Shown: positions 1,438-35,122, numbered from the stretch's first letter. The stretch: 36,854 nt of DNA from Planctomycetota bacterium (GCA_030628375.1 DAOVRD010000002.1:1-36854); one strand, 5' to 3'. Translations and numbers: made by a program. The notes: generated by a model not told the origin, from the letters alone.

Positions 1438-2673
1438 ATGCCCGGCAAACGGCTTCTACTGCTTGTGCTTTGTGCGATGCCCATGCTGGGGGTCACAGGA
1501 CCTGCGGCCGTCGTCGCATGTCCCTATTCCTTCCGGCAGGCGGGCTTCGCGGAACTCGATCCGCGCCCGTACTCCGCCTGCTTCGTCCTCAGGGAAACAA
1601 CGGCCGGCAGGGAGAGCCTGTCCCAGTGGATAAGGGAAGCCTCGCTGGAAGTCCTCCTGGGCTCGAACGTGGTGGCGACGACGGTAGACATGGATCAGGA
1701 GCCCTCGCACAGGGCAGCGGACCTCTGCAAGTCCCTGGGAATCGCCACCTTCCCCGCCGTGCTGCTGTTCTCGCCGGATGGAAGGAGCATGGTGGCCGCC
1801 GAAGCGCCCCAGGACGGGGCTTCCAGGGACTGGGTGACATCGCAATTGGAGAAGATGGTCCGTTCGCCCCTTCGCGAGGAGATCGTCCGCAATATCGTGC
1901 GCAACTGGTGCGTCGTCCTCCTTATGGAGGGGGAAGACGCCGAGCAGAACCGCCGGGCCAGGGCCGCGATCGAGTCGGCCGTGCGTCGGATTACGGGCTC
2001 AATAACCGAGACCGGTCTCACGGTTCAAGATGGGCCGTATCTTGTGCTCCCTTCCCCGGGCGCCGCGCAGGAGAGGGTTCTGCTCTGGAGTCTCGGTCTG
2101 GAAGGCGAGGAGGCGGGGCCGGCCGTCGTTGTCCTGTTCGGCAGGGGGCGACAGCTTGGACCCGTATTCAAAGGCCCGTTGATGACGGCCGATGCGTTGC
2201 ATGAGGCCTTCTACCTGCTGGGCAGACGGTGCGTCTGCACGGTGGACAGGCGTTGGCTGTCGGGACGCTCGATCCCGCTGAAGTATCCGGCCTGGTTTGA
2301 GGACGAGGTCCTGCGAAGGGCGCAGATAGACGTATCCAGTCCCGAAGTCAAGCTTCAGATCGCTCCCGGGATGCGATGGCTGTCCGCATACCCGGGCCCG
2401 GCGGGTGACGGCAACGGCTCTGCGCTGCTGGGGACGGGCGCGATGGTCACCGGGCCGCTCGGCTACACTGAGATCGCGCTGGCGCCGCATAACGGCGGGC
2501 CCGGGGCCACCTCGTCGGTTCCCCAGGTAGCGTTGCGCCCCCCTCAACCGATCGAATCCACTCTCTCCTTCGTTGCCCAGATAAGGCGAGTGGTGTTTTT
2601 CCTCGTCACGGCCCTGGTGCTCGTAGCGGTCCTCGGCAGCGTGGCAGTCATGCTGAAGAGAAGGAACGCATGA
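1438..2673 (+). CDS. Exported/bitopic hypothetical protein with N-terminal thioredoxin-fold-like region (CPYS motif) and C-terminal TM anchor
   Basis: 411 aa. N-terminal hydrophobic signal MPGKRLLLLVLCAMPMLGV..AAVVA followed by C-P-Y-S (nt 1519-1530). TFPAVLLFSPDG resembles the cis-Pro/beta3 segment of Trx/Grx folds. C-terminal helix VVFFLVTALVLVAVLGSVAVML followed by KRR. Stop lies 1 nt before the next start. Confidence 0.7.
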   Translation: MPGKRLLLLVLCAMPMLGVTGPAAVVACPYSFRQAGFAELDPRPYSACFVLRETTAGRESLSQWIREASLEVLLGSNVVATTVDMDQEPSHRAADLCKSLGIATFPAVLLFSPDGRSMVAAEAPQDGASRDWVTSQLEKMVRSPLREEIVRNIVRNWCVVLLMEGEDAEQNRRARAAIESAVRRITGSITETGLTVQDGPYLVLPSPGAAQERVLLWSLGLEGEEAGPAVVVLFGRGRQLGPVFKGPLMTADALHEAFYLLGRRCVCTVDRRWLSGRSIPLKYPAWFEDEVLRRAQIDVSSPEVKLQIAPGMRWLSAYPGPAGDGNGSALLGTGAMVTGPLGYTEIALAPHNGGPGATSSVPQVALRPPQPIESTLSFVAQIRRVVFFLVTALVLVAVLGSVAVMLKRRNA

Positions 2674-2674
2674 G

Positions 2675-3820
2675 ATGAGCGCACTGCCGTTGATCTTGCA
2701 GGAGATCTGGCACAGGAAGCTGGACTTCCTGCTGGGCCTGCTGGCCGTCACGATAACCGTAGCCCTCTTCGTAGCCCTCCTCACCATGAGCGGCGCCTCC
2801 GACAGGGAAACCAAGCGTCTGATGCGCGACATGGGGTTCAACCTCTTGATCGTCCCGAAGGACACTGACATGGAGGACTTCTGGGCGAGGGACTTCGCCC
2901 AGGAAGAGATGCCCGAGGACTACGTCCACCGCCTGGCCGGCTCCGGCGATATCCACGCCGACCACTACGTGGCGATCCTCCAGAAGAAGATCGAGTGGCG
3001 TGGGCGACAGATTCTGCTCACGGGTTGGCTGCCGGAGGTGCCATCGGCAAGGAGAACGCGTGAGAAATCCTTCATGGGGCTGGGCGTCCCTCCGGGCAGG
3101 GCCTGCGTGGGATACGAGCTGGCCCGGGGCCTGAACATCCAGCGCGGAGATGAGATCGAGTTGCACGGCAAGTCGCTGCTGGTGGACGCCGTCCTTGCCG
3201 AGGCAGGCAGCAAGGACGACATCCGCCTGTACACCCACCTGCACGACGCGCAGGAGATCCTCAACAAGCCCGGGAAGATCAACATGATCAGGGCACTGGG
3301 ATGCCTCTGCGGCCAGGGCGGACGGCTTTGGAGCATCAGGCCGCAGATCGCGGAGGTCCTTCCTGACACCAGAGTCACGGAATTCCGCTCGATCGCCGTC
3401 GCCCGGGCGGAAACGCGGAGGATGGTGGAGCGACAGGCCGTCCTCATCCTCTCGACGGTCGCCATAGCCTGCGTGATATGGGTCGCGGTGCTCTCCCTCC
3501 TGAACGTCTGGGAACGGCGTCAGGAGATCGGAATTCTCAGGGCGCTGGGTGCAGGCTCGGGAAAGATCGCCGTCCTGTTCCTGGGAAGGGCCGTGTCCGT
3601 CGGGCTGGGCGGAGCGGTCCTCGGCTTCATAATCGGGACCGGTCTTGCGCTGCACTTCGGCCCCACGATCTTCAAGGTGACGGCAGCCGCCATCAAACCC
3701 GTTTACGCGTTGATGGCCCAGTCGCTGGTGGCGGCGCCGCTGGTGGCCCTGCTTGCAAGCCTCTTGCCGACGGTGGTTGCGGTGACCCAGGACCCCGCCG
3801 TCACGATTATGGAAGAATAG
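2675..3820 (+). CDS. ABC transporter permease, FtsX/MacB-type (1 TM + periplasmic domain + 3 TM)
   Basis: 381 aa. N-terminal TM LDFLLGLLAVTITVALFVALLTM, a roughly 220-aa soluble insert, then the FtsX-domain signature WERRQEIGILRALGAGSGKIAVLFLGRAVSVGLGGAVLGFIIG and a terminal TM. Confidence 0.9.
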   Translation: MSALPLILQEIWHRKLDFLLGLLAVTITVALFVALLTMSGASDRETKRLMRDMGFNLLIVPKDTDMEDFWARDFAQEEMPEDYVHRLAGSGDIHADHYVAILQKKIEWRGRQILLTGWLPEVPSARRTREKSFMGLGVPPGRACVGYELARGLNIQRGDEIELHGKSLLVDAVLAEAGSKDDIRLYTHLHDAQEILNKPGKINMIRALGCLCGQGGRLWSIRPQIAEVLPDTRVTEFRSIAVARAETRRMVERQAVLILSTVAIACVIWVAVLSLLNVWERRQEIGILRALGAGSGKIAVLFLGRAVSVGLGGAVLGFIIGTGLALHFGPTIFKVTAAAIKPVYALMAQSLVAAPLVALLASLLPTVVAVTQDPAVTIMEE

Positions 3821-3821
3821 A

Positions 3822-4478
3822 ATGGTCCGCCTGGCGCACGTTACGAAGGTCTACCGACGTGGGAAGGAGGAGGTCCACGCCCTCAAGTGCGCGGACCTGG
3901 CGATTCGGCAAGGGGAGTTTGTGACGGTGGTGGGGCCCAGCGGAAGCGGGAAGTCCACGCTCCTGCTGACCATCGGCGGCATGCTCCACCCGACACAGGG
4001 CACGGTAGAGGTCGGCGGGACCGACGTCTACGCCCTGAGCGGACGGGCGAGGGCGAAGTTCCGTGCCGAGAGAATCGGCTTTGTCTTTCAGATGTTCCAT
4101 CTCCTGCCCTATCTCACCGTGCTGGGGAATGTGCTCCTTCCCGGCCTCATCGCGGCAAGGAAGAGCCAGCGGCAGGAGGCGCTCTCCCTGCTTGAGCACT
4201 TCGGGCTCGGCGACCGGACCCGCCACAAACCGTCCGAACTCAGCACGGGGCAGCGTCAGCGCGCAGCCATGGTTCGTGCCCTGATGAGTCATCCCGCACT
4301 GCTCCTGGCGGACGAACCCACGGGGAACCTGGACCCAGAGAACGCACGTGTTATCATGGATTATTTCGGCGAATTCCATCAGAATGGCGGGACCATCGTG
4401 CTGGTCTCCCATGAACGCCTGGCGGGGGAGTACGCGGATCGCGTAGCCACCATTGAAGACGGCCGGGTCCGAGAGTGA
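3822..4478 (+). CDS. ABC transporter ATP-binding protein (MacB/LolD/FtsE-like)
   Basis: 218 aa. Walker A GPSGSGKST, signature LSTGQRQR, Walker B LLLADEPTGNLD, H-loop VSHE. Confidence 0.95.
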   Translation: MVRLAHVTKVYRRGKEEVHALKCADLAIRQGEFVTVVGPSGSGKSTLLLTIGGMLHPTQGTVEVGGTDVYALSGRARAKFRAERIGFVFQMFHLLPYLTVLGNVLLPGLIAARKSQRQEALSLLEHFGLGDRTRHKPSELSTGQRQRAAMVRALMSHPALLLADEPTGNLDPENARVIMDYFGEFHQNGGTIVLVSHERLAGEYADRVATIEDGRVRE

Positions 4479-4502
4479 CGCGGCCCAAAGGAGGCCGACA
4501 AT

Positions 4503-7500
4503 ATGTTCAACCCACGACCGACAACTTGCGGTCAACAGCGCTGGCGTCTCGGAGCGGCTGCTCCCTGGCTGGTAGTGGCGATCGCCCTTTCCTGCGTCGG
4601 CGCAGCGCGAGCGGAAGACTGGCCGACACACATGCACGACGTCGCCCGCAGTGGAACGACTTCCGAGCGGCTGGCCCTGCCCTTGTCGCCGCACTGGGTC
4701 TTCACTTCCAAACATGCTCCCGAGCCCGCCTGGCCGCCGCCCAAGTCCGTGGAGATCGAGTATGTCCGCGAAGTGCACAAGGTGGACTTCGATGAAGCAT
4801 ACCAGGCGGTTGTGGCCGGTGGCGCCCTCTACTTCGGTTCGTCTGCAGACAATAAGGTCTACTGCCTTGACGCCTCGACCGGAGAGGTGCGCTGGTCTTT
4901 CTTCACCGGCGCCCCCGTGCGGCTGGCGCCGACCGTGTGGAACGGCAAGGTGCTGGTGGGCTCCGACGACGGATTCGCTTACTGCCTGAGCGCGGACACC
5001 GGGAAGCTGCTGTGGAAGTTCAGGGCCGCTCCCCACGACGACGAGCTGCTCGGCAACGGGAAGATGATGTCGCTGTGGCCCGTTCGAACCGGGATTCTGG
5101 TGGACAAGGGGATCGCCTACTTCGCCGCCGGGCTGTTCCCCGGAGAGGACGTGTACCTTTACGCCGTGCGAGCGGAGGACGGCGAGCTGGTCTGGAAGAA
5201 TGACGCCTCGGCCCAGGCGACGTCGGGCTGGCGGTCCTTCTCGCCCCAGGGTTACTTGCTCGCCAGTGCGACAACGCTTTTCGTCCCGTGTGGAAAGGTA
5301 CTCCCTGCGGCCTTCGACAGAAGCAACGGCCGAATGCTCTACCAGCGAGAGAGCGTGCTGTGGTGGCATTCGGCCGAGGGCGGAACTTATGCCCTGCTCG
5401 CCGACGACCATCTGTACGGCGGCGGGCAGGAAGTCGTGGCCTACGACCAGAAGACGGGGGGCGTCGGGTTCGCCTGGTTCCCGGGGCGGCGGCTCATCAC
5501 GAAAGGCGACTTCGCCTATCTGCTTACGGACAACGCATTGTTCGCTCTGGACCGAAAGACCAGCGCCCAGGCAAGCTGGAAGCGCGGCCAGTTCAACGCG
5601 CAGATGAGGAGCCGGCTTGACTACGAGAAGGCCGAACTCCAGAGGAGCCTCAAGTCCCTGAACGTGCAGATAGACGCAGCTCGCAAGGAACTGGAAGAGC
5701 TGGAGAAGCAATCCAAGGAACTGAAGTCGCCCCAGGCCGCAGAGGCCATCGAGCTCAGGAGAACCAGGGACGCGGTGAGCCAGAAGATCGAGTCGCTGTC
5801 CAGCCAGCCCGATGCTGTAACTCAGCGACTGGCAGAGATAGAAGAACAGTTCAACAACCATGAGAAGCTGGAGGAAGCCTATCGCAAGACCGTCATCTGG
5901 CAGACGCCGTGCGAGAGGCCCGAATCAATGATCCTTGCCGGAGAAGTCCTGTTCGCCGGCGCCCAGGACGAAGCGCTGGCATTCGATGCAGCCACCGGCA
6001 AGGAACTCTGGCGAGGAAAAGTGGACGGCAAGGCCAAAGGATTGGCTGTCTCGGGCGGACGTCTGTTCGTGAGCACGGACAAGGGCGCCATACATTGCTT
6101 CGGAGACGGCAAGCGGGCCGCTCCCGTGCTGGTTGCCGATCCCCTCGAACCCGACCCCTATCCCGAAGACAAGCTCACGCCCATCTACAAGGCCGCGGTG
6201 GAGCGCATCATAAAGGAGACGGGCGTCACGAAGGGCTACTGCCTCGTCCTGGGCTCCGGGCAAGGAAGGCTCGCCTTCGAGATCGCCAGGGCAACGGACC
6301 TGGTCATCTACGGGATAGACGAGGACGCGAAGGACGTCCGCAAAGCAAGAGAAGCACTCGATGCGGCCGGGCTCTACGGGACCCGCGTGACCGTCCAAAA
6401 GGGGTCACTGTCCGATCTGCCCTACGCGGACTACTTCGCCAACCTCATCGTATCCGACGAGATGCTCATTTCGGGCCGCCGGCCGGGTTCGGCCGACGAG
6501 ATGTTCCGTGTCCTGAAGCCCTGCGGCGGAGTGGCCTACATAGGTCAGCCGAAGGAGACAATGAAGCTGTGGCGACGGCTCAATGCGAAGAAGCTCCGAC
6601 AGTGGCTGAAGGAAGCGGAGGTCGCCGACGCCCAGCTTACCGAAGGCGACGGCGTATGGGCGAAGATCGAACGGGGACCGCTTCCCGGGGCCGGCAAGTG
6701 GACCCACCAGTACGCCAACCCGGCGAACACCACCTGCTCCGACGACGAACTGGTCCGGCTCCCCCTGGGGGTGTTGTGGTTCGGCCGCCCGGGCCCCGCC
6801 AAGATGGTGCAGCGGCACTACGCCGTAGCCGCCCCTCTGTCCGTCAACGGTCGGATGTTCATCCAGGGCGAGAACGTCGTGATGGCTTACGATGCCTACA
6901 ACGGCGTGCAGCTCTGGGAGCGGGAGATCGAGGGCGCGATGCGCGAAAACATGCGCGGCGACTGTAGCAACCTGGCGGCCGACGAAGACAGCCTGTTCGT
7001 GGCCGTGGCGGACAAATGCCTCCGTCTGGACGCGGCAACCGGTGAGACCCGGCAAACCTACAGCCTGCCCCCGTTCCCGGACGCGGCGCCGCAGTCGTGG
7101 GGTTACGTCGCCGTCGTGGGCGACGTGCTCTTCGGCAGCACGACCCAGGAAGGCAGCACCTGCGACCTCGTCTTTGCCCTCGACGTGGACAGCGGCAGAC
7201 TTCGATGGGACCACCGGGGCAAGACGATATCCCACAACACCATCGCCATCGGTGACGGCCGCGTGTTCCTTGCCGAAAGCGACGTGACCGCCGAGCAGCG
7301 GCAGGAAGCGCTGAAGCAGAAGCTCGTCCGGCTGCCAGCCCCCGAGGAACCGGAAGCGGCCGAAGCGCAAGAGGAACTCGACAGCGCCGACGTGCGACTG
7401 GTCTGCGCCCTGGACGCCGATTCGGGCAGCGTAGTCTGGCAGACGCCCGTGGACCTGACCGACTGCGGTGACTGGCTCCTCCATGCCATCTACCAGAACG

Positions 7501-10946: not shown

Positions 10947-13900
10947 CTAACGGCCCGAGCGGCGGCTTCGGATTCCTTCGAGGGCGACTTCCAGGCTCCG
11001 GCGGGCTACATTGTCGCTCGGGTTTGTGGCAAGGACTTCGGATAAGTGCGCGGCGGCCGCTTCGAACTCGCCCCGGTCAATCAGAACAATGCCCATGCTC
11101 CTGCGGGCAGGCGTTAACCCGGGGTCGAGCCGAAGCGCCTCAGCCCATTCCGCCATCGCCTCGTCCGTTCGCCCCCGCGCGGCAAGGGCCATTCCGAGGT
11201 TGCTGTGGGTCTCGGCCGAGTCCGGGTCGAGCCGCAGCGCGCTCAAGTAGTGGGCGACCGCCTCGTCGAATCTGCCCTGTGAAGCCAATGCGAACCCAAG
11301 ATTATGATGCGCAACCGCATTGTCGGGCTCCAGGGCCAGCGCGTTACGGTAGAGGGTGACGGGCTGATCCCGGTTGCCCGGCACGGCCATGGCACGCCTG
11401 GCCAGCCACATCAGCCCGACGGCGCTGTCCGCGTAGTACGCGGCCACCCCCCGGACCCACTTCAGGCCCTGGGCCAGGTTCTCTCCGTACTTCCGGAACT
11501 TCGCATCTTCCGGCAGCAGCGCAACAGCCTGCGGGACCTGTGTTGCGAACATCAGCGCGTTGGCCGCCGCGCGCAGAGTCAACTCGCGCTCAAGCGTTTG
11601 GGCTTCAGTCTCGCTCCCGGTGTTGCGCACGTAGGGCCAGACGCTTTCCACCAGGAGCAGGAACGTAGTCCCTGTGCACTTGGGCCCGGCGGAGTATCTT
11701 GTCTTATACTGAACATAAGGCAGATCATCGGTGTTGATCGGGCCCTCGCCGGTCCATTCCCGCAGGCGTTCCTCACCGCAGACGAAAGTCTCAAGTATTC
11801 CCAGCGGGTTCTCCAGGCCCCAGGGGCGCAGATCCGCATTGACCTCCGCCGCCGAAAGCTTCTCCCTCATTGCCCCCACGTCTATCGTCAGCCTGTCCGC
11901 TGTCCCCACGAGGTGCGTGTGACCTCCGTACACACCGGTCTCCGCCACGCCGTGTGAATACCAGAGGCTTGCGTGGGGGAATACGCACTGAAACGTCCTG
12001 ACGATACTCTGGTACTCCGCAACGCTCAGCTCCTGAAACGGCACCCACTGCACGTAGATGCCGTCGTCAGTCAGATGCTCCTTGATCGTCTGGTAGAACT
12101 CGCGGGTGTAGAGGACCCACGCATCGCTGGACTTGGGGTGCAGGGAGTCCGAAACGATCACGGGCCACTTCTTGCGCGACATCAGGACGTAGTTCCGGCC
12201 GTCGTCAATTGCCACGCGCACCTTCGGATCATTCAGGACGGAGTTGTTCGCTTCCTCCAGGACCTTGGCGCCCTCCAGAACGCTGCTCTCAAGGTCCACC
12301 GCCAGCACTGACTTGACGTCGGGATAGCGCGCGGCAGCCCCGGAAGCGATGCCGCCGCCGAAACAGATCATCAACACTTCCTCAGGATTCGCGTGCAGCA
12401 GCGGACCAAGGGCTGCCATCAGCTTGAAGCACACCATCTCCGTATACGCAGTGGTCACCTCGACCGCGCCGTTCATGTAGAGATACTTCACTTTGCTGAC
12501 TTTGTCCTGAACGATTGTTTCCGTGCTCGTCCTTCCCTCCCGGTAGAAGACGATGTCCCTGTGTCTCCTCAGGTGCACACTGAAGGGGAGGCCGACCCTT
12601 TGACACAGGTCCGGCGGGATGACAAGGGTGAAGACCAGCACGACGACCAGCGCGGCCGCCCCGGCGCACGCCAGACCCAGCGATTTCCGCCGCGTCGCCG
12701 ATGCCAACAACAGCGTCGTGCCGACAATCCAGTACAGCAGGCTGATGAGAAGGATGCTCTTCTGGATGCCAATGACGGGGACCAGCACGAAAACCGGAAT
12801 GAGCGACCCGACGATTGTGCCGAGCGTGTTCAGGGCGTAGACGGTGCCGACGCTGCGACCAACGGTAGCCACGCTTCGAGCGTAAGCTGCGCAAATGAGG
12901 GGAAACACGACTCCCATGACCATCGTGGGCGCCAGCACGGTGATGATCGTCATGGGCCAGAGGGAGAGAGGGATGGTCGCGCGGGACGACGATATGAGCG
13001 CCCCCAGCGCGAAGCAGACGACGACCGTCAGGCCGAGGAGCAATTGCGCCCCCGCCAGAATCCGCAGCGATGCCCCGAATCTGGCCAGGAAGTACCGATA
13101 GATCAAGCTGCCCAGCCCGATGCCCAGCAGGTAGATGCCGAGGATCGTGGGGAATGTGTAAGCCATGTTGGCCAGCGGACCAAGATACCGCAGCCACAGC
13201 ATCTCGCAGGAAAGGGCCGCCAACCCGGAAACAAACGCTACCGGCAGCAGTAACCCTCTCGTCCCTGGCGGGAGTCCTCTTGCTTGTGCAGCGGCTGCGG
13301 GACTGCCAGCAGCGCCCCCGACCGGCGCCGCAGCCGGCCGGACAGGCAGCGGAACCTTGCCTCGCCGGTACTTGAAGCCGAGGGCAAGCGCGCCCGCGGC
13401 GATGAGCAGGTTGGTGCCAACGGCCGCCTGGTTGGTGACCGACACCCCGAGAGTATCAATCAGCCAGTAGCCTGCCGCAAAACATCCCAGTGTCGCCCCG
13501 AGGGTGTTCAACGCATACAGCAGGCTCACGCGCGCGCCGATCACTTCGCGTGATTCGGTGCAGAAGCGAGTCAGTAGAGGCAGCGTCGCGCCCATCAGTG
13601 CGCAGGGCACAAACAGGATGCCGAACGAGATCACAACGCGAGCACCCATGGACAACAGCACCGACTCGGGCGCAAGCAGGGCAACGCGCGGCAGCCACCA
13701 CCGAAGGGCTGCAAGCAACAGCGGCACGCCCATCGCCCACAGAGCAATGACGGCCTGGATAGTCCCATACATCAGCAGCCGGTGGGGGAAGCGGTCCGCA
13801 AGTCGGCCGCCCAACCAACTCCCGACCCCCAACCCGGCCATGAAAGCGCACAGCACGACACTGATGGAGTAAGTGCTTGCACCAAGGACCGTCACGAACT

Positions 13901-20107: not shown

Positions 20108-20128
20108 GGCTGCGCTACATTACGAGCC
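20108..20128 (-). repeat. Partial extra copy of the repeat B core, overlapping the dnaA stop codon
   Basis: GGCTGCGCTACATTACGAGCC is identical to 20046-20066. The TTA at 20120-20122 is the dnaA TAA stop on the minus strand. Confidence 0.75.
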
Positions 20129-21580
20129 GCCGAGCTTCGTCTGAAGGCGCTGGAGCAGTGCTGCGAGCTGAGGGTCCCGGCTGGATTCCGATGCTATCTT
20201 GTCCACGGCATGCTTGACCGTGCTGTGGGTGAGGCCCCCGAAGAGCCGTCCGATCTCCGTCAGGGACGCGCCCGTCAGCTTCCGGGCCAGATACATGGCT
20301 GTCTGTCGCGCCCGGCACACCGACCGCGACCGGGACCTGCCTGTCAACTGCTCGGCGCGCACGGAGAGGACCTCGGCAACCGCCTCTTTCACCTGCACAA
20401 GCCCCACGGGTCGCTCCATGAGCGGCTGTAGGGCGGCCAGGGCCTCAAGCGCCTGGGGCAGGCGTAGTCGGCCACTCCCCTCCACGCCGGCATACAGCGT
20501 CAGACAGCAGATGGCGGACTCCAGCCTCGTGAAGCTCTGCGCGTAGGTGCGCGCGATGAGCCGGAGCACTTCCTCCGTGGCAGCCAGCCCCCGGCGCCGG
20601 GCCAGCTCTTTGACGATTTCCAGGCTCTCGTCTTCCTGCGGCACCACCAGGACGGCAGGGAACGCACGCTGCAGCAGCGCCCGCAACGCCGGGTGAATGT
20701 CCTGGAGTTCCTCGGGGTGCGGCGTGCCGCTCAGGGCGACGCGTCCCCCCTTGCCCAGTATGTGCTTGACGGTGTGAAGAAGCTCGGTCTGACCTCCCGA
20801 CTTGCCCTCCACGAACTGGACGTCATCCAGCAGCAGCAGGTCGCAGGAACGGTACCGGCTGCGGAAAGCGTGCGTTCTCCGGTTCTGAATGGCGTGGTAG
20901 TATTCGTTGCACCACTGCTCGGCGGAGATATACATCGGTTCGAGACCCCGCTCGGGTCCGCGGGCCAGTGCGAACATGGCACGCAGCAGCGAGGTCTTCC
21001 CAAGTCCGTATTGTCCGCAGACATACAGGAAATGGAAGCGGGGGGTTTCCTGACCGGCCAGTTCCTTGGCAGCGGCAAAAGGGAGCCTGTTGGAGCGCGT
21101 CACGATGAGCCTGTCGAAGCTCCAACCGGGGGGTGGCTGGAGGTGCAGGCCGCGAGGGGCGACCAGCCGTCCGGCGCCGGCCTCGTCCTCCAGCAGCTCC
21201 GCGCGCCTCTGCGCCCTCATCTGCCGGAACAAGCGCGGCGCCACGTCGAAGCCCACTTCCATCGGGCGGCCCAGCAGGTCGCCCACGGCGTCCGCCACTG
21301 CACTTGCGTAACGCATCGTCAGGAACTGCTGAATGATGACGTTCGGCACGCCGACCACCAGGCGTCCGCTGTCGCCACCCATCAGTTCGGTCTGCCGGAA
21401 CCAGATGCTGTAGCGCTCAAGGCCCAGGCGGTCCTTGATGCTCTGCTGAACCGCCTGCCAGAACTCCTCCCGCGTCGCGTACTGCGTGTTGTCGCGCAGG
21501 AACTCGGACAGAGCATCGTCCTGAGTCCCTGTGACCCGTCCGCCTCTCTTGGCGGCCCCTGGTCTCAGTTCAGCGGACAC
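20120..21580 (-). CDS. dnaA: Chromosomal replication initiator protein DnaA
   Basis: Domain I (ERYSIWFRQTEL..LVVGVPNVIIQQFL), AAA+ Walker A CGQYGLGKTSLL, Walker B LLLLDDVQF, C-terminal DNA-binding LARKLTGASLTEIGRLFGGLTHSTVKHAVDKI. The track ORF begins at the ATG at 21724, but those 48 N-terminal residues are Arg/Pro-rich. A GTG at 21580 preceded by GGAGG (4-nt spacer) is my preferred start (487 aa). Confidence 0.93.
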   Translation of the reverse strand: MSAELRPGAAKRGGRVTGTQDDALSEFLRDNTQYATREEFWQAVQQSIKDRLGLERYSIWFRQTELMGGDSGRLVVGVPNVIIQQFLTMRYASAVADAVGDLLGRPMEVGFDVAPRLFRQMRAQRRAELLEDEAGAGRLVAPRGLHLQPPPGWSFDRLIVTRSNRLPFAAAKELAGQETPRFHFLYVCGQYGLGKTSLLRAMFALARGPERGLEPMYISAEQWCNEYYHAIQNRRTHAFRSRYRSCDLLLLDDVQFVEGKSGGQTELLHTVKHILGKGGRVALSGTPHPEELQDIHPALRALLQRAFPAVLVVPQEDESLEIVKELARRRGLAATEEVLRLIARTYAQSFTRLESAICCLTLYAGVEGSGRLRLPQALEALAALQPLMERPVGLVQVKEAVAEVLSVRAEQLTGRSRSRSVCRARQTAMYLARKLTGASLTEIGRLFGGLTHSTVKHAVDKIASESSRDPQLAALLQRLQTKLGGS

Positions 21581-22339
21581 ACAACCTCCCCGCAGCGGCA
21601 AGAAGTCGCTTCCAGAAAGCACACAGATAAGGGAGAGCCTAGGTGAAACTACGGATGGAACGACAAGCCCCGGGACGGACGGACTGCGGGGACGGCACAA
21701 TGACCGGCGGGGCCGTCCGCGCAACGTCCAGCCGTCCGCCCTCAGGCAGGCATGAACTACCGAAGACTGACACCCCCTCCACCGCCTTCTATCTCAGTTC
21801 CTTTCGAACCCAAGCTCGCAACAGATCGCCAATATTAGAACAACGCGAACACTTCTTCAACAGCTTCTCTTTCCCTTTTTTGCACTGCCGTTCGCTCGCG
21901 CATACATAAGTGTCCGGCGCCAAACAGATTCTGTAAAACAAGATTTGCTGTAATGAACGCGCAAGTTTTTTCGCGCCCCTGACCCGTGGGAACCACGGCC
22001 TTTTCCGCGCGCGTTGCGTGCTCGACGTTGAGTGTTGCGCGCCAACCACTTACGCATTCAAAACGCTGCCGTGCACGACGCCGCAAAACGATGAATGCCC
22101 CAGAAGGCCGACAAAGGCATCCTCGGCGCCTTACGAAACACCCCCGGCGTAGTACTACCAATCACCGAAATCGTGTTACCGTTTTAAACGCTCCGACCGG
22201 CCCGCCTCTGCACACTGGCAACCGCCACAGATCGTTCTGCGCGAAGTGTTTAGGCACAGGCCCGGCTCAAACAGGGCGCGCCAGCGAAATGCAGATCCGC
22301 CGAAGAATGCGCGGGCCTGGAAAACCATAGCCGGACGGA
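21581..22339. other. Lower-GC non-coding region upstream of dnaA: candidate oriC / dnaA control region
   Basis: About 760 bp with no credible ORF. Holds the AT-richest patches in the window (21829-21885 CAATATTAGAACAACGCGAACACTTCTTCAACAGCTTCTCTTTCCCTTTTTTGC; 21925-21975). No canonical TTATCCACA box seen. CAGAT-containing motifs recur at about 21633, 21822, 21925, 22228 and 22292. Confidence 0.35.
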
Positions 22340-22391: not shown

Positions 22392-22467
22392 TGGTGGAGG
22401 ATACGGGGATCGAACCCGTGACCTCGACAATGCCATTGTCGCGCTCTCCCAGCTGAGCTAATCCCCC
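22392..22467 (-). tRNA. tRNA-Ala (anticodon GGC), CCA encoded
   Basis: Minus strand reads GGGGGAU UA GCUC AGCUGGGA GAGC G CGACA AUGGCAU UGUCG AGGUC ACGGG UUCGAUC CCCGU AUCCUCC ACCA (76 nt). It folds by hand into a full cloverleaf. The G3:U70 alanine identity pair is present and the anticodon loop is A-U-GGC-A-U. Confidence 0.93.
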
Positions 22468-30296: not shown

Positions 30297-31697
30297 ATGC
30301 CGACGCCCTTCACCAAGCCTGTGGATCCCCTTTTCGCGTCGCCCGATTCCGTCAAGGGCATGCGACTGGAAGTCAGCCCCAACGGCCGGTACCTCGTCAC
30401 GGCGGAAGGTAGACCGTTCTTCTACCTCGGCGACACCGCTTGGGAGTTGCTCAAACGCCTCAACCATGAGGAAGTGGACGTCTATTTCAAGAACCGCATC
30501 GCCAAGGGCTTCACCGTCATCCAGGCCTACATGCTGCGCGGGCTCAAGTCGCCCAACCTCTACGGGGACCTGACGCTCGTGGACGGCGACCCCGCCCGGC
30601 CTAACGAGGCGTTCTTCGAGAACACGGACTACGTCATCAACCGCGCGAACGAGCTGGGCCTGGTCATGGGCATCGTGACCAACTCCGGGCAGCACGTTCG
30701 CAAGGGCTCGCTGGACGAGCAGGTCTTCACCGAGTCCAATGCGTTCGCCTTCGGCAAGTTCCTGGGCACTCGCTACAGGCAGAACGCCGTCATCTGGTTC
30801 CTGGGCGGCGACCGAACGCCCGAAGGGCACGAGGCGGTGTGGGCTGCGATGGCCGGGGGCCTCAAGGAGGGGAGCGCGGGCGACCATCTGGTCTCTTACC
30901 ACGGCCCCGGCCCTGCGCCGGGCGTGATCAATTACTCCTCTTCGTTCTGGTTCCACGACGCCGACTGGCTCGACTTCAACGTGATTCAGTCCAGCCACGC
31001 CTGGGGCACGCTCAACTACGAGTTCATCACGCACGACTACGACCTGACCCCGGCGAAGCCCACCATAGACATGGAGACCCGCTATGAAAACCATCCGGCT
31101 ACCGTGTCCTGGACGGCGGGCAAGAAGCGGATAGACGCCCATCAGGTTCGCGAAGCGGCTTACTGGAACATGCTGGCCGGCGCCGCCGGCAACGGCTACG
31201 GGGCATGGGAGGTAAGGCAGTTCTACGACGCCGGTAACCCCCGGCTTTCGACCCCCGACTATGCGTACTCCTTCGGGGAGCCGGAAGCGAGCATGAACTG
31301 GCGTGAGGCCATGGATTGCGAGGGCGCGTTTGGCATGGGCTACATGCGCAGGCTCCTCGAGCTGCGGCCCTGGTACCTCATGGTGCCGGACCGGCGCATC
31401 GTCGCCTCAGTGCCGGGGATTCTGGAGGATCACGTCCAGGCCGCCCGCGCGGAGGACGGCAGCTTCGTCCTTGCATACTCTCCCTTCGGGAACCCCTTCG
31501 GCATCCGCATGGACAAGATATCGGGCGCCAAGGTGATGGCCCACTGGTACGATCCGCGCACCGGCGGCTGGCAACCCATCGGCAAGTACTCGAACACGGG
31601 CGTGCAGGAGTTCGTCGCGCCCTCCTGCGGCGAGCGGGACGACTGGGTGCTTGTCCTGGACGACGCCGCGAAGGCCCTCCCGATCCCCGCCGGCTAG
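30297..31697 (+). CDS. Glycoside hydrolase family 140-like protein (DUF4038 TIM barrel plus C-terminal collagenase-type binding domain)
   Basis: The track ORF starts at 30267. GAGAGGAG precedes the ATG at 30297. NGRYLVTAEGRPFFYLGDTAWELLKRLNHEEVDVYFKNRIAKGFTVIQAYML is a close match to the DUF4038/GH140 N-terminus as I remember it. C-terminal AHWYDPRTGGWQPIG..DDWVLVLDD resembles the Collagen_bind_2 domain. Confidence 0.87.
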   Translation: MPTPFTKPVDPLFASPDSVKGMRLEVSPNGRYLVTAEGRPFFYLGDTAWELLKRLNHEEVDVYFKNRIAKGFTVIQAYMLRGLKSPNLYGDLTLVDGDPARPNEAFFENTDYVINRANELGLVMGIVTNSGQHVRKGSLDEQVFTESNAFAFGKFLGTRYRQNAVIWFLGGDRTPEGHEAVWAAMAGGLKEGSAGDHLVSYHGPGPAPGVINYSSSFWFHDADWLDFNVIQSSHAWGTLNYEFITHDYDLTPAKPTIDMETRYENHPATVSWTAGKKRIDAHQVREAAYWNMLAGAAGNGYGAWEVRQFYDAGNPRLSTPDYAYSFGEPEASMNWREAMDCEGAFGMGYMRRLLELRPWYLMVPDRRIVASVPGILEDHVQAARAEDGSFVLAYSPFGNPFGIRMDKISGAKVMAHWYDPRTGGWQPIGKYSNTGVQEFVAPSCGERDDWVLVLDDAAKALPIPAG

Positions 31698-31877
31698 AGC
31701 CGGTGCAAATCGCGCCGGGCCGCGGCGGAAAACCGCTGCACCCGGCTCGACGCAGCGTTCAATGATCCTGGCTGGATTGCGACGGAGAGGCGTTGAGCGA
31801 CACAAGCGGCGCCCAAGTCCTCAAGTGCAAGTACTGTGATCCGCCGTAAGGCCACTTCACATAGCGAGGGAGGCGTC

Positions 31878-32639
31878 ATGGCCGCCGGGGCTTTTCCGAC
31901 CATCAAAGCCCTCGTCTTCGCGGTTATACACGCGAACCGAGGCCGAGTCGATTACGCATCGCTGGAGGAAGCTGTACTCGCTCATTTCCCCGACAGCGCC
32001 TTCAAAAAAACGCACTGGTCATGGTATCGGTATCAGTCCACAAAAGGCCGGTTCGCTGACGAATTCAGCACCCCTGAGAAGCAGAACCTGACCAACTCGG
32101 GGCGCAGCCGCAAGAGACACAGCAAAGCCTCGATAACGCCACAAGCGCCATCGTCGTCAGAGGTGAAGACGATTCCAATCTCCGACGAGACCTTGGCCGC
32201 CACCAAATCAGTAATCCGGGCAGCGCTTCGTTACGAGCGGGTGACTGGCGGTACTCGCAAGGTAGGGATAACGGGTGAGGTCGGCGAAGTCCTTGCGTGC
32301 CACCAACTTGGGCTGCGACTGGCTGTCGACCCCCGGAGCCAGGGATTCGACGCGGTGGATGCTGATGGCAAACACGTTCAGATCAAGACCCGAAGGAGCG
32401 AATCGGCAGGACTTCCGCGGAACGCCGGCCGGTTGAGCAGGTTTTCCAAGCATCCTTTCGACTACGCCTTGCTGGTGCTTCTGGACCGCCAGTATCGTTT
32501 GGCGGAGATATGGCGCGCGGATTTCGAGGACCTGCTACCGCTCGTTGACAAGGAGAAGCGCCGCAATCCGAGCCTTTCGGCGTTCAAGCGAGCGGCAAAC
32601 CGCATCTGCACGGTCGCACTGCAGGAAGACCCCCAGTAG
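31878..32639 (+). CDS. Mrr-like PD-(D/E)XK nuclease-fold protein with an N-terminal small (wHTH-like?) domain and a basic linker
   Basis: The track ORF starts at 31836. GAGGGAGG precedes the ATG at 31878. C-terminal ITGEVGEVLACHQLGLRL..SQGFDAVDADGKHVQIKTRR..FDYALLVLLD shows an E...D...QxK arrangement as in Mrr-type catalytic domains (nt about 32343-32396). Lower GC than flanking genes. Confidence 0.7.
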   Translation: MAAGAFPTIKALVFAVIHANRGRVDYASLEEAVLAHFPDSAFKKTHWSWYRYQSTKGRFADEFSTPEKQNLTNSGRSRKRHSKASITPQAPSSSEVKTIPISDETLAATKSVIRAALRYERVTGGTRKVGITGEVGEVLACHQLGLRLAVDPRSQGFDAVDADGKHVQIKTRRSESAGLPRNAGRLSRFSKHPFDYALLVLLDRQYRLAEIWRADFEDLLPLVDKEKRRNPSLSAFKRAANRICTVALQEDPQ

Positions 32640-32652
32640 ACGAGGCGGGAAC

Positions 32653-33186
32653 ATGGTTGACGACGAGAGACTTCACTTGCGATTCTCTAAGGAACAGATC
32701 GCTTTGTGGTCAGGTAGGTACGAATTCGGTGCTGACGAGGAGATACAGAGAGCAATCGGTCCACGTGTCAAGGCGGCAGGTTACTTCACGAAGGACGACT
32801 TCCTGAAAGTGTGCGAGTGGAAGACTCCACGAACCCAGACGCACTGCAGGAAGAACGCCCCCGAGTTCATTCGGGAAACGACGCGCACGGCCCTTGCGAC
32901 GCCTTCAGAGCGGCTCCGTGTGGAAGTCCTAACGCTGCTGGATGGGGTAAGGTGGGCGACCGCTTCAGTCCTGCTTCACTTTGGACATGTGGACCCATAC
33001 CCCATCATGGACTACCGAGCGCTCTGGTCCCTCAGCATCACCAAACGACCCTACCCGTATGATTTCGCGTTCTGGTGGGGTTACACACAGTTCTGTCGCG
33101 AGCTTGCCGAAGAATGCGGCGTCACCATTCGCGTTGTCGACCGAGCACTCTGGCAGTTCTCAAAAGAGAATCAACCCGGCGAGTGA
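32653..33186 (+). CDS. Hypothetical protein, OGG/HhH-glycosylase-fold-like (tentative)
   Basis: The track ORF starts at 32545, but its first 36 residues are Arg/Ser junk. The ATG at 32653 lies 13 nt after the upstream stop. CEWKTPRTQTHCRKNAPEFIRETT..LLDGVRWATASVLLHFGHVDPYPIMDYRALWSL resembles the WK.PR...N / GVg.a.AS.iLhf..P..yPi.D.R pattern of OGG-fold proteins as I recall them. Unverified. Confidence 0.6.
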   Translation: MVDDERLHLRFSKEQIALWSGRYEFGADEEIQRAIGPRVKAAGYFTKDDFLKVCEWKTPRTQTHCRKNAPEFIRETTRTALATPSERLRVEVLTLLDGVRWATASVLLHFGHVDPYPIMDYRALWSLSITKRPYPYDFAFWWGYTQFCRELAEECGVTIRVVDRALWQFSKENQPGE

Positions 33187-33640
33187 CGGAAGTCGTGAAA
33201 CCGTTCACTTCGATCACGGCTGCCAGAAGCAAGTGTGGATTCGGAAGCACATGTGAACGAATGAGTTGCCAACGGGCACAACCTAACAGTCGTTACGAAG
33301 AGTGTTACAGTTGGGGAGCCGATCATTTCCGTCCTAACTCCCACTCGGCCGTCGGTTAACAGGCTGGTTCGGTTCGGACCCCGAATGCAACGCTGTTCGA
33401 ACTGACCCGTTGTTGGGCGTCGGGCACACGGCCATCACCCGTGGGCAGAGCTCTTGCACCACTCACTCAAGTATCCATCCCCGGGAAACGAGCGGCAGCG
33501 GCAGACTACGAAGTTGCGCGCCCTCTGGAGTGTGCCGTGATTCATCCCTTGCACGTCTTGTCGAGGGTCACGATCCTGCCGTAGTTCACCCATGTGACCG
33601 CTTACGCCTACGCTCTGCTGTACGTCGGACCGACCCGCCC

Positions 33641-35122
33641 TCAGGTGCCCGCAGGCTGGACGAGCACCGCCCAGAAAGCGCCCGAGGGCGCGGTCAGTGG
33701 CATGCGGTTCCCGGCCGGCTTGCGTTCCTCGTACGTCCAGCGGGATGCACGGACGTCCAACCACCGCAACCGTACATCGCCCTCGACGGCCGAGCAGTCC
33801 AACTGCACGGCGCCCCCGTTCGGGAAGCAGACGGCATACGCGCGGCCGGGGTCGGCCAGGCAGTAGGCCTCCAGGCCCCAGCCCATCGCGTCGCGCGTCA
33901 GTTCCGGCTGGTCGCTGCTCCGGCAGAGTTCCACCAGGCGGCTCATGCCCCAGTGCATGTCGTCGTCGAGCAGGTCCGGACGCGGTTCGCAGGTGAAGAC
34001 GCCCAGCTCGTCGGTGAACGTGCGCATGCTGCGGATGTGGCTCTGGGCCACCTCGTTGAGGCCGAGCCCGGAGGTCGGACGGTGGAAGCGCACCGCGGAG
34101 ACGCCAGCGAACACGTTCCGCCAGAAGCGGTTCTCACCGGCAACTGGTGGGCCGGCGTGCGAGTGCGTGGGCTCGGCGCCGTAGACCTTGTCGCAGTTGA
34201 CGGGCCTGGGCTTACCGCGTTCTTCGAGCTGGCGCCGGACCCACAGCGTGGCCTCGTAGTGCGTGCGCCCGAGCTGAGTGTTCGTGTTCGATATGTCAAC
34301 GAAGCTGTAGAGGTCGGGGTTCTCAAGGGTCACGCGCACGCAAGAGCGCATCAGGTAGTCGCGACGGTCCGCCTGGATGCGAATGCCCGGAATGGCGCCG
34401 TCGGTGGGGTCCCACATGTTCCACATCTCGGTCACCTCGACCGTGCGGCCCTGCCGTGCGGCGGCCGCCTTGACGAACTCCGCCCAGTAGCGGCTCCACT
34501 CCGGGTGCGTGTTCGTCTCGTTGTTCATGCAGTAGAGCACGTGGTCGTAATCGAGCGAGATGGCCAGCACCCTCTCCGCGAAGGCCTCCTGGTAGCGGCG
34601 GACGACGGGCAGGTCCTTCAGTGCGGGCACGCTCTCGAAGAAAGGCTGTATCAGGGTGTTCTGGCGGTAGTCAACGACTTCCTGGAAGCCGGACTCTTCG
34701 GCGGTGTAGTTGACGTTGTTCTTCGGGTTGAACGGGTGGGCAACCCAGAAACTGTAGTAGTCATACGTGGCCCAAAGTTCGATCTGGACGAAGATCTCAC
34801 GCTGGGCTGTCAGGTCCAACAGCGCACGGAACTTATCCCAGTACTCGTCGTGCCATCGGTCCAGATCGTAAAGGCCGGTGGCTCCGTCCTGGGCGAAGGC
34901 GTGGATGTTCCCCGGATCGCGGGAGGACATCGTGCAGCGCACAAAGTTGCCGCCCACCGATTGCAGCAGGTCGAGATGCTCCTGGAGATCCGGGATCTGG
35001 AAGAGGTTGTCCTCAACGGAGCCGCCCAGCAGCAGAACCGGGCGGCCCCTGTACTGCCAGTAGAACGGGTTGGCGTCGTACGGCTGGATGCGGCCGTTAT
35101 CCTCGTTGCGGGTTCGCGCCAT
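33641..35122 (-). CDS. Glycoside hydrolase-like TIM-barrel protein (clan GH-A/GH5-like) with C-terminal beta-domain
   Basis: 493 aa with balanced composition, unlike the 596-aa antisense ORF. NPFYWQYRGRPVLLLGGSVEDNLFQ, IFVQIELWATYDY, and VLYCMNNETN (Asn-Glu acid/base-type motif). GGAG Shine-Dalgarno 8 nt upstream. Confidence 0.82.
   Translation of the reverse strand: MARTRNEDNGRIQPYDANPFYWQYRGRPVLLLGGSVEDNLFQIPDLQEHLDLLQSVGGNFVRCTMSSRDPGNIHAFAQDGATGLYDLDRWHDEYWDKFRALLDLTAQREIFVQIELWATYDYYSFWVAHPFNPKNNVNYTAEESGFQEVVDYRQNTLIQPFFESVPALKDLPVVRRYQEAFAERVLAISLDYDHVLYCMNNETNTHPEWSRYWAEFVKAAAARQGRTVEVTEMWNMWDPTDGAIPGIRIQADRRDYLMRSCVRVTLENPDLYSFVDISNTNTQLGRTHYEATLWVRRQLEERGKPRPVNCDKVYGAEPTHSHAGPPVAGENRFWRNVFAGVSAVRFHRPTSGLGLNEVAQSHIRSMRTFTDELGVFTCEPRPDLLDDDMHWGMSRLVELCRSSDQPELTRDAMGWGLEAYCLADPGRAYAVCFPNGGAVQLDCSAVEGDVRLRWLDVRASRWTYEERKPAGNRMPLTAPSGAFWAVLVQPAGT

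Follow-up and report, generated by a model that had tools for sequence, protein, structure and literature searches.

Two adjacent genes, one for a restriction-type nuclease and one for a protein with the fold of base-recognising DNA glycosylases, raise the question of whether they form a single defence system or are two independent genes that lie side by side. The pair is found in a small islet (positions 31698-33640) of a 36,854-nucleotide stretch of DNA from a Planctomycetota bacterium (GCA_030628375.1, DAOVRD010000002.1:1-36854), which was analysed over its full length and is referred to here as the window. Between an apiosidase/GH140-like gene and a convergent gene for a 493-residue protein, the islet holds two open reading frames (ORFs), both on the + strand. 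ORF1 (31878..32639, 253 amino acids) is the gene of a predicted BisI/Eco15I/NhoI-family nuclease (Pfam DUF6998), a solitary restriction-type enzyme to which an N-terminal domain is added, and ORF2 (32653..33186) encodes a predicted stand-alone, Ogg2-like HhH-GPD-fold protein of an unnamed family, with 177 amino acids instead of the 178 given in a preliminary description of the locus. A conserved two-gene defence system is not supported, because the two families almost never co-occur, and this saves a follow-up of the pair. We consider it reasonably likely that the islet was acquired and carries two functionally independent single-gene functions, a solitary restriction enzyme and a stand-alone glycosylase-like protein.

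Co-occurrence of the ORF1 and ORF2 families

Loci of ORF2 homologues were collected from 80 genomes and extended as far as 6 kb to either side where the contig allowed, several of them ending at a contig edge. None of the 80 carries an ORF1 relative within 6 kb, as assessed by tblastn and with an ORF1 hidden Markov model. From the opposite side, an OGG-like gene was seen near the nuclease gene in 1 of 92 DUF6998 loci, 62 of which have at least 700 bp of downstream sequence. Where the DUF6998 protein bears the same N-terminal domain as ORF1 and enough downstream sequence is available, ORF2 is absent from every locus (0/19). All-versus-all clustering of 146 immediate and 127 second neighbours of the ORF2 homologues in the 80 genomes gave no conserved partner, no family being present in more than 5 loci. 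The homologues are solitary and often lie amid housekeeping genes, for example near dnaN/gidB/parAB. The earlier proposal that a nuclease and a base reader form one module does not survive these counts, the single co-occurrence being a distant one.

The gene arrangement itself is as previously described, both by direct reading and in an independent metagenome gene-calling pipeline, which made identical calls for ORF1 and ORF2. The two co-oriented genes are separated by a 13-nt spacer (32640..32652, + strand), in which GAGG precedes the ORF2 ATG, and a scan of the window sequence found no terminator between them. Judging from this spacer, ORF1 and ORF2 are probably co-transcribed, and they would then be expressed together here yet remain functionally independent.

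Several observations weigh against such independence. The 13-nt spacing and the shared low guanine-plus-cytosine (GC) content fit one transcription unit acquired together. At one locus (L161), a DUF6998 gene is followed by a 115-residue ORF and then by an OGG-like gene whose product is 27% identical to ORF2. Moreover, 4 of the 80 ORF2 loci adjoin co-oriented type IV-like nucleases, namely Mrr proteins at L071 and L078 and HNH_2 proteins at L008 and L037 (with a few-base overlap at L037), which is more than we would expect from random placement, a judgement made without a computed background. Some ORF2 relatives are also fused, in both domain orders, to DUF429, a predicted RNase H-like nuclease (PMC3985635). 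All of these features could be accommodated by a cooperative two-component restriction module, in which ORF2 would recognise or excise a modified base and ORF1 would cleave the strand or be licensed by ORF2, and the loss of the lyase Lys throughout the ORF2 family (see below) would make a nuclease partner useful. We regard this explanation as improbable in view of the co-occurrence counts on both sides, the absence of ORF2 from all 19 loci of the N-domain type, the lack of any nuclease neighbour for most ORF2 homologues, and the self-sufficiency of the characterised BisI-family enzymes, which act as sequence-specific dimers (PMC11347163).

A looser functional tie between the ORF2 family and nucleases could also be drawn from the Mrr and HNH neighbours and the DUF429 fusions. 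In one version, members would be a new class of lyase-less, Ogg2-derived glycosylases or base readers directed at a phage DNA modification, which pair opportunistically with whichever nuclease is adjacent or fused (BisI-like here and at L161, and Mrr, HNH or DUF429 elsewhere). We give this idea a slender chance; if true, restriction would be modular, a base being excised or marked before the nuclease cuts, and the islet pair would be one instance.

L161 is the sole other place where both families lie near each other. On this 846-kb metagenome contig, positions 2338-6128 encode a 306-residue HExxH-type protein (HEMVHLLERHH), a 139-residue ORF and a nuclease-only DUF6998 protein (3968-4474), and further on the 115-residue ORF, the distant OGG-like gene (4886-5476), with a more canonical hairpin (GVGERTAS), and a 144-residue ORF. 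The cluster looks like a defence island.

ORF1, its active site and its N-terminal domain

By sequence comparison, ORF1 is a BisI-family homologue with an intact predicted active site. Its C-terminal 155 residues match Pfam DUF6998 (5.8e-8) and the PADLOC mREase_II models ("type II methyl-directed restriction enzyme"; 1.2e-10), and a phmmer search of the PDB returned Eco15I (8q5m; 9.2e-9), while NCBIfam gave no match for either ORF1 or ORF2. An AlphaFold2 (AF2) model built on 37 homologues, with a predicted local distance difference test (pLDDT) score of 88, consists of an N-terminal helical domain, a disordered linker and a nuclease domain. Among its Foldseek matches in the PDB, the top 11 are all Eco15I_Ntd or NhoI structures (2.5e-6 to 5e-5), with PvuII next. 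The small N-terminal domain, the basic Ser/Lys/Arg linker and the C-terminal E..D..QxK core of the preliminary description were all recovered, at residues 1-75, about 76-96 and 97-253, respectively, and the motif GEVGEV..GFDAVDADGKHVQIKTRR is present.

The PD-QxK nuclease domain (residues 97-253; 32166..32639, + strand) was aligned by MAFFT with Eco15I and NhoI, using the sequences given in the supplement of PMC11347163. In this alignment, E137 (32286-32288), D158 (32349-32351), Q168 (32379-32381) and K170 (32385-32387), with an Ile between the last two, correspond to E49, D69, Q79 and K81 of Eco15I, each of which is essential by mutagenesis (PMC11347163). ORF1 has a predicted PvuII-like PD-(D/E)xK fold with the site E137, D158, Q168-x-K170. 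The 37 homologues (50-66% identity) show no variation at these predicted catalytic residues or at about 45 further positions, which points to purifying selection. The label "Mrr-type" given to ORF1 earlier holds for the E..D..QxK site, which the BisI paper itself calls "Mrr-like PD-QXK", and fails for the family: ORF1 has no Mrr_cat or Mrr_N match at E ≤ 1, whereas true Mrr proteins score 1e-30 to 1e-36 with the same Pfam library. Membership of the Mrr family was ruled out by the absent Mrr_cat, and DUF6998 is matched instead, sequence and fold both siding with BisI/PvuII.

Does ORF1 cut only modified DNA? We infer that it probably does, by analogy, because the gene has no adjacent methyltransferase and the characterised relatives are methyl-directed. 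The homologues occur singly, and the settings examined, which are variously a serine recombinase/KAP NTPase, a HEPN-MNT pair, prophage genes or housekeeping genes, include no methyltransferase beside them; the exception is a ParB-methylase two genes off in one prophage-like locus. With no methyltransferase beside its gene, ORF1 most likely spares host DNA, and modified DNA of phages or plasmids would be the target of its type IIM/IV restriction. In the alignment, R172 of ORF1 falls on the Arg of the external methyl pocket in the BisI family.

Other features of the pocket tell against modification dependence. The Arg that contacts the internal methyl group (Eco15I R98, NhoI R101) aligns with a Ser in ORF1. 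At the place of the (H/R)(V/I/T/M) methyl-contact motif near the C-terminus, ORF1 has R228-R229, and only R228 agrees with the motif. In the MAFFT alignment, every DUF6998 protein has a gap where the DNA-clamping beta7-beta8 hairpin would be, so that the hairpin is apparently missing, and some DUF6998 members carry ExK in place of QxK. The pocket comparison is made at ~25% identity, where the alignment of loops is uncertain. An ORF1 that does not depend on modification would be either an ordinary type II-like nuclease whose methyltransferase is encoded elsewhere or a remnant in decay that has lost its activity. Of the three methyl-pocket elements defined for NhoI/Eco15I, two are not conserved, the hairpin is seemingly absent, the next-closest fold is that of the conventional enzyme PvuII, and part of the family has the canonical ExK. 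We give this alternative little credence, since the catalytic and about 45 further positions are invariant across the homologues, a methyltransferase is missing next to them (apart from the ParB-methylase mentioned above), and the best sequence matches are methyl-directed enzymes. Under the favoured, modification-dependent reading, the modification and sequence specificity of the BisI enzymes are still not simply transferable to ORF1, as judged from these alignments; the altered pocket could mean a new modification or sequence specificity, which would be of practical use as a reagent.

The N-terminal domain (residues 1-75; 31878..32102, + strand) is predicted to form four helices (residues 9-19, 26-36, 44-55 and 65-74; pLDDT above 90 in the AF2 model), and the pattern TIKxLV..G.VDY..LE..V...FP.S.F...HW.WYR.Q...G is conserved in alignments. 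Its sole Pfam match is a sub-threshold one to DUF6958 (E = 0.027), and the Foldseek search with the whole protein gave matches to the nuclease domain only. The domain is common to about 40 ORF1 homologues (50-66% identity). The other relatives are mostly 155-residue, nuclease-only proteins, and some have different N-terminal domains such as an XRE-type helix-turn-helix. A search with the N-terminal domain alone recovered 7 small stand-alone proteins (82-125 residues) and no new fusion partners. It is tethered by the basic Ser/Lys/Arg linker (about residues 76-96; 32103..32165, + strand), which is predicted to be disordered (pLDDT <50 at residues 77-92) and varies among homologues, its alignment columns being gapped and variable. 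The 75-residue helical domain on its flexible basic linker would be a subfamily-specific add-on, possibly one that provides extra DNA binding. Within a known enzyme family, ORF1 represents a new variant of domain layout. Through it the BisI family reaches into environmental phyla, in a form with a novel N-terminal domain and changed residues in the methyl pocket. Searching the literature for "DUF6998" and for "OGG fold protein" yielded nothing.

Two further loci bear on the domain architecture of these proteins. A 415-residue ORF at L125:3542-4789 has a Clp_N-like repeat region, read by eye (it starts MFERFTDRARKVMALANQEAQ), before the DUF6998 nuclease domain, which hints at a further exchange of N-terminal domains among these proteins, or could be an artefact of ORF extension instead. 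At L186:2349-4351, a stand-alone N-terminal domain of the ORF1 type (116 residues) lies just 3' of a 105-residue PD-(D/E)xK fragment, with a ScoMcrA-like HNH enzyme and an rve integrase nearby, and the cluster looks like a decaying defence island.

ORF2, a family of predicted glycosylase-fold proteins

Database searches gave ORF2 no family. The protein has no Pfam or NCBIfam match; together with 30 relatives, it fails to match Pfam HhH-GPD (PF00730), AGOG or OGG (PF21790) at E ≤ 1; a search of PDB sequences gave it no match, and with the ORF2-family profile found no glycosylase; and the PADLOC "OGG" model matches only 29 residues (145-173) below threshold (E = 0.01). The AF2 model, of ten helices, has a pLDDT of 94 and a predicted template modelling (pTM) score of 0.89. 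All 50 PDB matches listed by Foldseek for this model are HhH-GPD DNA glycosylases, led by the Ogg2 enzymes Tm1821 (3n0u), MjaOgg (3knt) and SsOgg (3fhg) (E = 2e-3, probability 1.0, template modelling (TM) score about 0.5), followed by Mag1, EndoIII, MutY and OGG1. The OGG/HhH fold that had been proposed from the motif WKTPR..GV..ASVLLHF..PYPIMDYRA, which is present, is therefore upheld by the model, and a two-lobe helical OGG/HhH-GPD fold is supported.

The likely chemistry was approached through a gapless 23-residue register in which G125...D147 of MjaOgg correspond to G98...D120 of ORF2; the MjaOgg motif was taken from PDB sequences, the 3knt chain bearing a K129Q substitution. The register places the HhH hairpin at G98-V99, the catalytic-type Asp at D120 (33010-33012, + strand; MjaOgg D147) and the position of the Schiff-base Lys (MjaOgg K129) at A102 (32956-32958, + strand). 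Across 271 relatives, Lys never occurs at position 102, where 245 have Pro, 9 Ala, 9 Ser, 6 Arg and 2 Gly. D120 is kept in 266 of the 271, and a D-x3-W motif is almost as constant, with D163 kept in 264/266 and W167 in 255/263. Further near-invariant residues of the family are W56-K57 (in WKTPR), H109, Y116-P117 and C148-R149. No lyase chemistry would be expected of ORF2 because the Schiff-base Lys is replaced by Ala or Pro, and the prediction drawn from this register is of a base-binding protein or a monofunctional glycosylase and not of a glycosylase-lyase like Ogg. Since the HhH hairpin, D120 and the D-x3-W pocket motif are kept while the lyase Lys is Ala/Pro, ORF2 is predicted to flip a specific damaged or modified base out of the helix and excise it, or at the least to bind it, and to leave the backbone uncut. 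Against the predicted enzymatic role stand the modest Foldseek values (E = 2e-3, TM about 0.5) and the lack of sequence-level similarity to known glycosylases.

The ORF2 family is sizeable and strongly conserved. It comprises 386 database clusters at 50-60% identity from many phyla, including Chloroflexota, Acidobacteriota, Planctomycetota, Verrucomicrobiota, Bacteroidota and Desulfobacterota, and in an exhaustive profile search of clusters made at 50% identity, 438 reached E ≤ 1e-30 and 3021 reached E ≤ 1e-3. The distribution is patchy, with relatives in 445 of 185,579 species genomes. The family is undescribed; its fold superfamily is well known, and stand-alone glycosylases are already known as a class. 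It combines a predicted Ogg2-like fold with family-wide loss of the lyase Lys.

The genes beside ORF2 homologues point in two directions. The commonest immediate neighbour family is the uracil-DNA glycosylase (UDG) superfamily (5/80 loci), and other repair-type neighbours are HhH-GPD proteins (two), a 5'-3' exonuclease (L030, and L010 by similarity), a Y-family polymerase (one) and DinB-family proteins (two). These neighbours, the housekeeping settings of many homologues (dnaN/gidB/parAB) and the fact that the nearest solved folds are repair enzymes favour an accessory base-excision-repair glycosylase with no defence role, which would be a chance neighbour of a restriction gene in an acquired patch. 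Defence-type neighbours were also found, namely Mrr (two), HNH_2 (two), TIR (two), a Type ISP enzyme (one), a type I S subunit (one) and methyltransferases (two). Their presence tells against a purely repair function, as do the very patchy distribution that nevertheless combines with 50-60% identity across phyla, and a GC content consistently below that of the flanks, which a recent preprint used to separate defence from housekeeping glycosylases (Getz et al., bioRxiv 10.1101/2025.10.29.685425). In addition, the UDG-like neighbours could themselves be Brig-type defence enzymes. Overall, we judge it unlikely, if quite conceivable, that ORF2 is a repair glycosylase that merely happens to lie beside ORF1.

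Under the favoured reading, with ORF1 and ORF2 independent, the role of ORF2 itself is divided. By analogy, its patchy yet conserved spread, low GC and occasional Mrr/HNH/TIR neighbours would favour defence, and the UDG, HhH-GPD and exonuclease neighbours together with the housekeeping settings would favour accessory repair. As a rough split, phage defence of the Dag/Brig type and accessory base-excision repair seem to us equally plausible, each falling short of an even chance, and a non-catalytic reader seems distinctly less plausible than either.

In two Anaerolineae loci (L005:2980-3459 and L006:5409-5924), UDG-superfamily proteins of about 160-170 residues are encoded directly upstream of, and co-oriented with, the ORF2 homologue, and L021 is also among the five UDG loci. 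Together with its ORF2-type neighbour, such a protein might make up two paired glycosylases, serving repair or resembling Brig. A few family members carry the ORF2-type domain fused to DUF429 or to another partner, namely EcsC, a subtilase, DUF6884, DUF7662 or a treble-clef zinc finger (DUF4379); representatives of the ORF2-type fusions are P0249, P0325, P0363, P0381, P0388, P0348, P0350, P0305 and P0382. Modular fused architectures are frequent in conflict systems.

Setting of the islet and comparison with known systems

The composition of the islet departs from that of its surroundings, as had been noticed. Its GC content is 0.589 against 0.644 for the whole window, the lowest of 699 equal-length sliding windows, and GC at third codon positions (GC3) is 0.69 in ORF1 and 0.66 in ORF2 compared to 0.81 ± 0.06 in 21 other genes, a deviation that is real but modest (about 2-2.5 standard deviations). 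The same tendency was observed in the homologues relative to their own flanks, both for ORF2 (GC −3.0%, lower in 52/68 loci, p = 9e-6) and for the ORF1 family (GC −3.7%, lower in 31/34 loci, p = 5e-7). Both families are patchy in distribution; relatives of DUF6998 are found on 104 plasmids and relatives of ORF2 on 4. Of viral relatives, none was found for ORF1, and for ORF2 there are only weak BFVD matches and one distant ORF from a pleolipovirus of haloarchaea. This ORF is "putative protein 17" of Haloarcula hispanica pleomorphic virus 3 (10951-11433; 27.6% identity over 81% of ORF2), and similar distant copies are present on haloarchaeal plasmids. The islet is probably a small, horizontally acquired insert within an otherwise housekeeping chromosome.

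The rest of the window is core chromosome, with genes for DnaA, RseP, Dxr, IspG, PhoU and SodA in addition to glycan-degrading genes. The gene that ends at 31697 is GH140-like, as stated in the preliminary description (Pfam Apiosidase, 4.6e-95). The convergent gene (33641-35122, − strand, 493 residues) has native composition (GC3 0.88); it had been called GH-like, for which there is no support, nor for any other assignment, as Pfam returned nothing for it. Neither repeats, direct or inverted, at the borders of the islet nor an integrase were found, in line with the earlier reading, which also reported no tRNA at the islet; the only RNA gene of the window, a tRNA-Ala (GGC) at 22392-22467 (− strand), adjoins a dnaA-like gene (20120-21724) and is distant from and unrelated to the islet. 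An empty-site or syntenic comparison gave no result, the flanking proteins having no relatives in any locus retrieved. No close relative of the source organism was found, the best homologues being 66% (ORF1) and 61% (ORF2) identical.

Upstream of ORF1 lies a 180-bp intergenic leader (31698..31877, + strand; GC 0.639), in which a simple scan found no sigma-70-like promoter. It holds the ribosome-binding site GGAGG (31869-31873), 4 nt before the ATG at 31878 that is the likeliest start of ORF1; the gene stops at 32639, and an alternative GTG at 31836 would give the longest ORF (267 residues). Downstream of ORF2, the non-coding tail previously put at roughly 450 bp measures 454 bp (33187..33640; GC 0.586) and extends to the convergent native gene. 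It contains no Rfam match, tRNA or conserved ORF, its RNA folding is ordinary (z = 0.40), and the single weak tblastx match, to the antisense strand of a helicase gene, was judged spurious; on these grounds, an RNA or a pseudogene was rejected. The tail may be part of the acquired DNA, given its GC, or decayed sequence.

The pair is not a named system, as the preliminary description had surmised: PADLOC gives only mREase_II for ORF1 and the sub-threshold OGG match for ORF2, and NCBIfam gives nothing. The PF21790 "OGG" family and the PADLOC "OGG" model represent what we take to be the ancillary OGG-like protein of type IV CBASS. In type IV CBASS, the operon of the OGG gene also encodes a CD-NTase and proteins resembling QueC and TGT. 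ORF2 resembles this protein only remotely, both matches being sub-threshold (PADLOC OGG, E = 0.01; PF21790, E = 0.009, in one ORF2-family fusion protein), and none of the CBASS components (CD-NTase, QueC-like, TGT-like) is among the genes scanned at 16.5-36 kb. With Mrr, ORF1 shares the PD-QxK variant and the design of a solitary nuclease with an N-terminal domain ahead, and differs from it in sequence and fold, which are those of BisI/PvuII, and in having no Mrr_cat or Mrr_N match.

The closest counterparts of ORF1 are the BisI-family enzymes Eco15I and NhoI, PvuII-like dimers with a "Mrr-like PD-QXK" site that cut GCNGC only when several of its cytosines are methylated or hydroxymethylated (PMC11347163, 2024). 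ORF1 is homologous to them by sequence (E = 9e-9) and predicted fold, sharing the PvuII-like PD-(D/E)xK core with E...D...QxK, the Arg after QxK and a solitary gene without methyltransferase. Domain add-ons occur in both, Eco15I having an extra C-terminal domain. In contrast, the extra domain of ORF1 is N-terminal, helical and set on a basic linker, a Ser replaces the internal-methyl Arg, the contact motif reads R-R, the beta7-beta8 hairpin is apparently deleted, and identity is about 25%, so that specificity for GCNGC and 5-methylcytosine is not to be assumed for ORF1.

For ORF2, the nearest structural counterparts are the Ogg2 enzymes (MjaOgg 3knt, Tm1821 3n0u and SsOgg 3fhg), which it resembles in size class, in the predicted all-helical, two-lobe HhH-GPD fold, and in the HhH hairpin and catalytic Asp of the shared 23-residue register (G..AS..L....D...I.D). 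Unlike Ogg2, the ORF2 family has Pro or Ala in place of K129 and its own motifs (WKTPR, H109, Y116-P117, C148-R149), and at about 15% identity the likeness is undetectable by sequence.

In lifestyle, ORF2 is reminiscent of the defence glycosylases, namely Dag1-Dag17, defence-associated HhH glycosylases of about 230-260 residues from Vibrio integrons (10.1101/2025.10.29.685425), and the UDG-like Brig1 and Brig2, grouped with Brig3 (PMC11078745; PMC13160076). The Dag proteins were compared through their published description. As described, the Dag/Brig enzymes are, like ORF2, products of stand-alone single genes missed by sequence searches, patchy in distribution and with local GC below that of the genome. 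The Dag glycosylases protect against phages whose DNA carries 7-deazaguanine modifications; Dag1 requires D184 and W188 as well as the Lys K118, and behaves as a bifunctional enzyme (10.1101/2025.10.29.685425). The invariant D163 and W167 of ORF2 are spaced as D184 and W188 of Dag1, whereas the canonical Lys is missing from the ORF2 family. That stand-alone glycosylases can act against phages, and are overlooked by searches at the sequence level, is a recent insight. The ORF2 family is a concrete, testable candidate for a further group of such effectors, and equally for a new repair specificity.

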